DNA from: Chthonomonadaceae bacterium
GTDB taxonomy: Bacteria > Armatimonadota > Chthonomonadetes > Chthonomonadales > Chthonomonadaceae
Direction: 5' to 3'
Length of the DNA stretch: 64,000 nucleotides
NCBI GenBank assembly: GCA_035650735.1
Contig: DASRGZ010000143.1
Span: 1 to 64,000, forward strand
Made by a program: the position numbers and the translations under genes. Positions within the stretch are counted from its first letter, which is position 1. The number at the start of each line of letters is the position of its first letter. The notes beneath the pieces are model-generated. The model saw only the letters and a program-made list of their open reading frames with translations, made no database searches and was not told where the DNA came from. Shown piece after piece: positions 84 through 1,011 of this stretch.

Positions 84-299
84 GGTCATCAGCCTCCAAG
101 TCCTCTCTCGAAGCAGGCAAAAAAGGGCATAACACCCTCTAAAGGGCAGGGCATTGATAGTCATGCAGGCTTTGCCTGTTTGCCGTGACATGGGCGCAAG
201 AGAATACGCTTCTCGCTATCCTCTGTATACGCGACGCAAACAGGAGTCCTCCCGGATTTTGCCGAGGATTCGGAAGGACTCCTGTTGCTGACAGGGCTG

Positions 300-884
300 C
301 TAGCGCAGCAGGTTCTGAATCGCCTCCTCCAGCGCCTCCTGTCCCTTCTTGTCCGCTTTCAGGTTGACGAATTTACTCGCCACCATCTTATTTTTATAGA
401 GGAAGACGGTGTTGCGGACGCGCGCATCCGTATTGATGCCATAGTCCTTGACCGCGTTATCGTCGAGATTGGGCAGAAAGGCAATGCCGATGTGGGTGAT
501 GTTCCTATCCGCTGCCATTTTTTCCAGGGACTTAGTAAGGTCTTCAGGCTCTTCCTCGCCGGGGTTGGTGAAGATGACAAACGCCTTAAGCCCTTGATTG
601 GCATGGGCCTGCACGGCCTTTTCCAGCGTCTCGGCCAGCGCGACGGCGTTCTTGGTGTTGTCCGTGTTAATCCAGACCTGCACCGCAGGTCGATCGCCGT
701 ACTTTCAAACGGGACAGGTTCGCGTGCCGCGATCCGGGCCGACGACGTGCTGGGGATTGTAGGCCGGGAGCGTCGTGCCAACCTCCAGGCCGGAGGTCAG
801 CTTTGTCTTTTGCTCCTGGGTCAGGGCTGGCAGGGTCAGCGCCGCAAGCAGCAGTCCTGCCAGTACCATGCGAAGGCTTTGCAT
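300..884 (-). CDS. Exported thioredoxin-like (seleno)protein with CxxU motif, 194 aa, read through an in-frame UGA at 705-707
   Basis: AGGAGG RBS then ATG 884; signal peptide MQSLRMVLAGLLLAALTLPA; SGLEVGTTLPAYNPQHVVGPDRGTRT-C-P-V-UGA-KYGDRPAVQVW continues in frame into ORF 300..683. Confidence 0.8.
675..691 (-). promoter_or_regulatory. Putative bacterial SECIS element
   Basis: GACCUGC-GGU-GCAGGUC perfect 7-bp stem with G-first loop, starting 13 nt after the UGA. Confidence 0.7.
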
Positions 885-1011
885 TGGCTGTTACCCTCCT
901 TGGGGATCGGGAATGGAAAGGTCTGATGGCTCTCGCTCGCCATATAAAGGCTTACCTTCTAATATGGATCGTAGGAACCGCGTGTTCCCAAAAATCGAAA
1001 GTTCTGCAAAT

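Follow-up and report, generated by a model that had tools for sequence, protein, structure and literature searches.

In this study, we analyzed a 64,000-nt stretch of the genome of a Chthonomonadaceae bacterium (contig DASRGZ010000143.1; hereafter the window) and found that a gene close to its start very likely encodes an exported selenoprotein of an uncatalogued bacterial family, which is cut short at an internal UGA in databases. On the minus strand, the frame running from 884 to 300 is open over 194 codons save for the TGA at 707-705, codon 60 (Table 1), and the 194-aa product aligned with its homologues across most of its length at 35-56% identity. The TGA stands in the context T-C-P-V-[TGA]-K-Y-G, which gives the motif CPVU (Cys57-Pro-Val-Sec60). 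Standard gene calling yields a 127-aa ORF that starts at GTG 683, inside the hairpin described below, and has no Shine-Dalgarno-like sequence upstream; the database protein (P0002) is this 127-aa form. These results confirmed the original prediction, according to which a 127-aa ORF without ribosome binding site belongs to a frame that reaches ATG 884 with its AGGAGG, is broken only by the TGA and would be truncated by annotation.

The prediction of a signal peptide, and with it of export, was likewise borne out at the level of prediction. The N-terminal stretch contains a hydrophobic 11-mer of KD 2.74 (by our own heuristic), residues 1-20 have low pLDDT in the AlphaFold2 model, and an N-terminal hydrophobic stretch without lipobox was present in 65 of 67 full-length homologues. 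Beyond the stop codon, region 190-300, which holds a long GC-rich hairpin, gave a folding z of -5.13. The terminator scan did not call the hairpin at 233..288, the promoter scan found no promoter, and Rfam gave no match within positions 1-2200 of the window.

Table 1. Features of the selenoprotein gene in the window, and further selenoprotein candidates on other contigs of the genome
Feature	Position	Strand	Basis
Full coding sequence, 194 aa, inferred Sec at codon 60, TAG end (302-300)	300..884	-	frame reading; homologues
Shine-Dalgarno-like AGGAGG, 10 nt 5' of ATG 884	895..900	-	sequence
Predicted Sec/SPI-type signal peptide, about residues 1-22, without lipobox	819..884	-	heuristic, hydrophobicity
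His46, conserved (Asp in distant CYxC/U subfamily); possible catalytic residue or metal ligand	747..749	-	homologue alignment
Cys57, opening residue of CxxU	714..716	-	Cys in 141/141 rows having a residue there
In-frame TGA, inferred selenocysteine 60	705..707	-	Cys/TGA column in homologues
In-CDS SECIS-like hairpin, 7 bp, GGU loop, codons of R-P-A-V-Q-V	675..691	-	folding, comparison
Cys-free thioredoxin-fold core, residues 64-194	303..695	-	predicted structure, structural alignment
Long GC-rich hairpin just 3' of stop; possible terminator or mRNA stabiliser	233..288	-	folding
Four further candidates (L113, L114, L118, L124)	C28:51152-51538, C215:44415-44780, C83:11521-11892, C151:3062-3391

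Reading of the in-frame UGA

Comparison with homologues indicated that the UGA at codon 60 is very likely recoded as selenocysteine, as originally predicted. Among 75 protein homologues, 72 had CxxC at this place and the remaining three lacked the region; in an alignment of 141 homologue rows, position 60 was Cys in 138 and Trp in one, and the 44 GTDB rows covering the column comprised 8 with TGA and 36 with Cys. An unbiased search with the family profile across 401 genomes from the phylum returned 142 matches in 111 genomes, with one TGA in 36 matches, a TAA in one and a TAG in none. All 35 TGA rows from other genomes, which belong to several families, carried the TGA exactly at codon 60 and had intact frames on both sides, and similarity likewise extended to both sides of the column where it held Cys. 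In addition, a pattern scan of metagenomes gave 33 hits, of which 16 were true homologues with TGA, one of them identical to the window; the other 17 were dropped for having no similarity to the query.

The genome (97.6% complete) encodes selA (535.7 bits), selB (368.8 bits) and selD (374.5 bits), all above the curated cut-offs, together with a tRNA-Sec gene on contig C198, and its selD gene carries an in-frame TGA of its own (UxxK). Lack of the sel genes, a residue other than Cys at the column or a sequencing error had been named as grounds for rejecting selenocysteine; the genes are present, the column holds Cys, and the letters at 705-707 were unchanged in contigs of four public runs (two studies; two of the runs are possibly the source of this DNA). 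Across the phylum, 30 of 34 genomes with a TGA gene had a selB match vs. 22 of the 46 genomes searched among the 76 that lack a TGA copy (Fisher p 3e-4; kin are not independent). The four TGA-carrying genomes without a selB match are fragmented drafts of 260-1140 contigs. For selA, with the same dependence among kin, the two groups were not separated (8/8 TGA genomes vs. 24/34 others, p 0.16). The U and C forms interleave on the trees, with 13 changes of which at least four are forced by strong branches (a quick tree and FastTree; trait column masked for the change count, four short rows omitted from one tree), suggesting that selenocysteine was kept or regained in many lineages.

A true stop is hardly credible, whether it marks a pseudogene, stems from an error in sequencing or ends a short peptide that a separate 127-aa protein follows: the 127-aa form does stand in databases, one population has a nonsense allele at codon 45, and a hairpin and CxxU can come about by chance, but the TGA occupies the same codon in every TGA row of other genomes, hairpin-preserving synonymous codons are fixed only in TGA genes, the TGA is constant over the four runs, and the GTG start is without a Shine-Dalgarno sequence. 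UGA as a tryptophan codon is also unlikely, because Trp occurs at the column in a single protein and UGA ends ordinary genes in this genome. The nonsense allele itself was seen in one contig of run X5 (depth 11), in which a change at 752 turns Gln45 into a TAG stop; the other three runs were without it, and it is a possible loss-of-function allele in one population.

Four further likely selenoproteins were identified in the genome, two of BCP type (TxxU) and two of TlpA type (UxxC), all with the TGA at the canonical site; four of the genome's 15 AhpC-TSA matches have an in-frame TGA there. Scanning the whole genome for a TGA followed by the hairpin core of the window gene turned up nothing else that was convincing. 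At 63% GC, the genome contains 17 six-frame TGA sites at which open frames and a strong hairpin accompany a CxxU context. The local combination of CxxU and hairpin is therefore within chance expectation, and it is the homologue evidence that decides the question of selenocysteine.

When refolded, the SECIS-like hairpin of the original prediction (GACCUGC-GGU-GCAGGUC, 691-675) was recovered: it has 7 bp and an energy of -10.1 kcal/mol, begins 13 nt past the TGA and places its G-first GGU loop 20 nt past it. None of 200 shuffles was as good; the wider 73-nt region around the hairpin was not unusual (z -1.26). The bSECIS model given in section 5 of PMC13188914 has a loop of 3-9 nt, a G as one of its two opening nucleotides, a spacing of 16-37 nt and an energy of at most -7.5. 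By our own script, the window hairpin fits the geometry taken from that section.

Among close relatives, the subfamily with the peptide P-A-[VI]-Q, a strict hairpin model was passed by 17 of 19 TGA genes vs. 1 of 46 Cys genes. Within this peptide, Ala was encoded by GCG in 19/19 TGA genes vs. 8/39 Cys genes and Pro by CCT in 17/19 vs. 8/39, part of the 19-gene TGA set having come from a pattern that demanded the peptide, not the codons. Covariation over these 19 genes was not above shuffles, with compensatory changes at one pair in two genes. In the phylum set, the strict model was passed by 6/35 TGA genes vs. 2/34 Cys genes. With bulges allowed, the median hairpin energy was -15.3 kcal/mol for 47 U genes vs. 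-10.7 for 65 C genes, and a permissive threshold did not discriminate (44/47 vs. 54/65). Other clades, which fail the strict model, form hairpins that are longer and bulged and whose loops stand at about +26 to +32 nt, and from sequence it appears that different clades place different SECIS hairpins in the same coding stretch. One whole family of the phylum (19 genomes; L156-L173, L176) has the TGA form only; its long bulged hairpin, with the loop 30-32 nt past the UGA in most genes, follows a SECIS design unlike that of the window. In the genome's own Cys paralogue on contig C72, the hairpin region departs from the SECIS core at the loop G and is possibly a relic.

Predicted fold and position of the CxxU motif

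The AlphaFold2 model of the protein had a pLDDT of 91.9, and its top structural match was DsbE 3gl3 (Z 17.4, rmsd 2.2, 140 residues aligned), with further matches to ResA 2f9s (Z 16.2), Bcp1 3drn (Z 15.6) and 5enu (Z 15.3). The protein had been proposed to be thioredoxin/AhpC-like. As to the fold, this proposal stands, with a predicted thioredoxin-superfamily fold of TlpA/ResA type. The peroxiredoxin (BCP/AhpC-TSA) motif PxxxTxxC/U is absent from the canonical site, and the weak PF00578 trace, which starts at residue 60 (profile position 21) and was found in 5 of 76 family members, stays below the cut-off (16.5 vs. 26 bits).

The usual site of the thioredoxin fold, as described in PMC2757866, is a CxxC at the first helix. 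In our model, the motif lies on a short helix (58-62) ahead of the first core strand (67-72). Residues 64-194, which contain no Cys, reached a pLDDT of 95.6 when folded alone; this core aligned to ResA residues 62-174 (Z 11.8, rmsd 2.5, 112 aligned) and matched whole classical thioredoxins as well. The active-site cysteines of ResA, C74 and C77 according to the structure entry titles, lie inside the aligned region, which puts the canonical site at roughly residues 73-79 of our protein. Cys occurred in 2 of 141 homologue rows over columns 70-85, and the canonical position is without Cys. Since the Cys-free core already covers the ResA active site, CxxU sits in the N-terminal extension, and the models make it very probable that the motif has been relocated there, away from the usual thioredoxin active site. 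The earlier view of CxxU as a typical thioredoxin/AhpC active site was therefore not upheld.

Should the register of the model be wrong, CxxU would be the ordinary thioredoxin/peroxiredoxin-position site of a divergent TlpA/BCP-like enzyme, and hhalign, from sequence only, indeed paired CPVC with the canonical CxxC (probability 46-57%, with a long gap). The match of the fold to TlpA/BCP and the BCPs of this genome, which have Sec second in their motif (TxxU), point the same way. Nevertheless, we regard this as very unlikely, because the confidently folded Cys-free core spans the ResA site and whole classical thioredoxins, both models put the canonical-site strand-helix pair after the motif, and the motif has no PxxxTxxC or WCxxC context. 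The structural register was ranked higher, and the hhalign register was set aside.

In the structural register, the ResA residues that match C57 and U60 are Leu57 and Leu60, positions that may be partly buried. The cis-Pro position, assigned from the fold map, is taken by Asn158 ahead of strand 158-164, with Asn in 104 of 141 rows. Conservation is concentrated in the extension, at S31, G32, G36, P44, H46 (133/141), G49, C57 (141/141), C60 (138/141) and Y62; in most rows of a distant subfamily, His46 is replaced by Asp. Y148, N151, N158, T159, Y163 and N174 are conserved too, and several non-Cys residues are near-invariant.

Compared with TlpA/ResA/DsbE (3gl3, 2f9s, 8t4c), the protein shares the predicted fold, the N-terminal extension, the strand-helix insertion and export (Z 16-17, rmsd 2.2-2.3, 136-140 aligned), but identity is only 8-17%, WCxxC is missing at the start of helix alpha1 while CxxU stands about 15 residues earlier, the signal peptide is of soluble type and the mature protein has no membrane anchor, and the cis-Pro before the third core strand is absent. 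With BCP/PrxQ (TxxU; PF00578), it has in common the fold class, Sec as second residue of the motif and the weak PF00578 trace, but it lacks PxxxTxxC/U and carries its motif elsewhere in the fold; the true BCP selenoproteins of the genome, unlike the window protein, have U after the first core strand. Sco proteins have a thioredoxin fold and bind Cu through CxxxC and a His, the CxxxC lying near the canonical site. Like Sco1/SenC, the window protein is an exported thioredoxin-fold protein with two Cys-type residues and a conserved His, but its motif is CxxU in a different position, Sco structures matched at Z of about 12.5, and there was no Sco Pfam match. The defining motifs of TlpA/ResA, BCP and Sco are all missing from the window protein, which belongs to none of these families. 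As far as sequence can tell, it works like a bacterial CxxU selenoprotein; with the catalogued ones in Table 1 of PMC13188914 (SelW-like PF10262, Trx7/PDZ NF041199, Prx-SUH NF045827, AhpD-like) it shares CxxU, Cys homologues and a SECIS within the coding sequence.

The original suggestion of a possibly uncatalogued family was supported by several searches. No Pfam or NCBIfam model matched the query, 75 homologues or 12 distant members at cut-off, the NCBIfam library including the models of Haft and Tolstoy 2025. The 119 families in Table 1 of PMC13188914 (the 2026 catalogue) contain no matching entry as judged by model IDs and motifs, and the available full texts, including PMC4807772, PMC12013277 and PMC13326102, hold no description of the family; BSepDB Table S2, Haft and Tolstoy 2025 and Deng et al. 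2026 could list it. Bacterial selenoproteins that are exported have been described before (bioRxiv 2022.07.06.499078), and export by itself is therefore no novelty. Searching PDB sequences with the family profile yielded nothing significant (best E 0.24). The ESM Atlas returned unnamed clusters only and, by structure, dioxygenase and rhodanese fusion clusters as well.

Possible function of the Cys-x-x-Sec centre

Selenocysteine residues are in nearly all cases catalytic or metal-binding, and the TGA hence indicates where the working site of this orphan domain lies. Because this site lies away from the usual place in the thioredoxin fold, the family offers a direct test of how the fold moves its active site. 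We consider it fairly probable that this uncatalogued, phylum-wide family lost the canonical site and that a His + Cys-x-x-Sec centre arose anew within its N-terminal extension, where the central strand has its opposite end. The protein itself is probably a periplasmic thiol/selenol redox catalyst whose CxxU is recycled by an exported thioredoxin, with substrate and partner putative. SelB would bind the in-frame hairpin, leading to insertion of Sec at the UGA, and the protein would be exported unfolded. The CxxU motif would then cap a short helix next to His46, where Sec60 could act as the reactive nucleophile, reducing a periplasmic oxidant (a peroxide or a protein disulfide) and subsequently closing a Se-S bond with Cys57 that an exported thioredoxin would re-reduce. 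A redox context is suggested by exported WCxxC thioredoxins that adjoin Cys relatives or are fused to them. Against this reading stand the missing thioredoxin gene beside the window copy, the lack of a conserved neighbourhood, the close kinship and shared Cys form of the thioredoxin-adjacent loci, and the possible partial burial of the motif.

As a less likely but possible alternative, His46, Cys57 and Sec60 may bind Cu, Zn, Fe or a toxic metal in a periplasmic carrier or chaperone, and thioredoxin would only keep the site reduced. His46 is kept in 133/141 rows and gives way in the distant subfamily to Asp, which can also serve as a ligand; the domain is fused to intradiol-dioxygenase-like domains, a distant subfamily sits behind a gene for a two-CxxCH cytochrome c, and the protein no longer has the canonical redox face, nor, by the fold map, the cis-Pro position (Asn158). 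Haft and Gwadz (bioRxiv 2022.07.06.499078) also argue for metal interaction of exported CU proteins. On the other hand, just three candidate ligands are conserved, Sco structures rank lower than TlpA/ResA/BCP (Z 12.5-12.6 vs. 17.4), and no metal-transport neighbourhood recurs.

It is highly improbable that C57 and U60 form a structural or regulatory Se-S or S-S bond while the function resides in a non-redox binding surface (Y148, N151, N158, T159, Y163, N174). Such a role would fit the hydrophobic character of those ResA extension positions to which the motif corresponds, the near-invariance of several non-Cys residues, and the use of the domain as a building block of diverse exported proteins (fusions with YceI, an SGL-like propeller or dioxygenase-like domains). 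This reading conflicts, however, with the repeated keeping or regaining of Sec over the 13 tree changes, at least four of them forced, and with established selenoproteins, which according to section 7 of PMC13188914 use Sec for catalysis or metal ligation.

Family extent, fusions and gene neighbours

The analysis adds a large missed selenoprotein family, an orphan domain without Pfam model that has more than 1,000 relatives at 50% clustering; the family profile matched 1,057 cluster representatives. Of the best 150 representatives, 33 have their first residue at around 61-70, the start expected of calls truncated at a UGA, as judged from the protein records. Within the phylum, 35 of 401 sampled genomes have the TGA form.

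The domain also occurs in fused form, in other phyla with dioxygenase-like, YceI and thioredoxin domains. All but one of 30 longer hits are fused to a PF00775 intradiol-dioxygenase-like domain, and PF00775 was found in 12 of 20 long representatives scanned; the named fusion examples are from Bacteroidota. The C-terminal domain of these Bacteroidota proteins (P0227, Pedobacter) is a true homologue (25-33% identity, profile E 1e-21 to 1e-29) with the same G-P-D-x-G-T-x-T-C-P-V-C-K-Y-G motif, but it is a fused Cys form, whereas the window protein is a stand-alone Sec form. Stand-alone members labelled 'protocatechuate 3,4-dioxygenase beta' probably owe this name to the fusion. In a single case, a stand-alone intradiol-dioxygenase-like gene (L071:1775-2581) lies about 2.4 kb from a Sec member on the opposite strand, echoing the fusion. 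Other exported fusion partners are YceI and an SGL-like propeller.

The genome's own Cys paralogue (contig C72, 46% identical) is fused to an exported WCxxC thioredoxin. This gene (L033:6870-7925), whose thioredoxin part has WCGPC, is convergent with a gene for an exported protein (L033:6145-6807) that has two CCxGC motifs and no Pfam match at 1e-5. Tandem Cys and Sec copies occur in two other loci, and such natural Sec/Cys pairs within one genome are ready controls. Seven loci of the same order, which are close kin and all Cys forms, have a gene for an exported WCxxC thioredoxin immediately downstream; the window copy lies downstream of a PALP-family gene and has no adjoining thioredoxin gene. 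Neighbour clustering gave no family-wide operon or conserved neighbourhood. Members of the distant subfamily stand after the cytochrome c gene or near Tpx, TlpA and GPx genes, one of them being followed by TlpA and GPx genes. In the CYRC subfamily of the host's family (L025-L028, L031), the gene comes directly after one whose product combines a cytochrome c domain with a pair of CxxCH motifs. A record titled Methyloversatilis (L075) has a gene identical around the site to that of an Armatimonadota record (L077), and its label looks doubtful.

In addition, positions 1-143 of the window form an interspersed repeat, about 143 bp long, that contains a palindrome at 52-83 and has no Rfam match. It had about 30 near-full-length blastn matches in the genome, 35 of its 59 matches lay near contig ends, and its depth in public runs was very high; the repeat is possibly a MITE or REP-like element.
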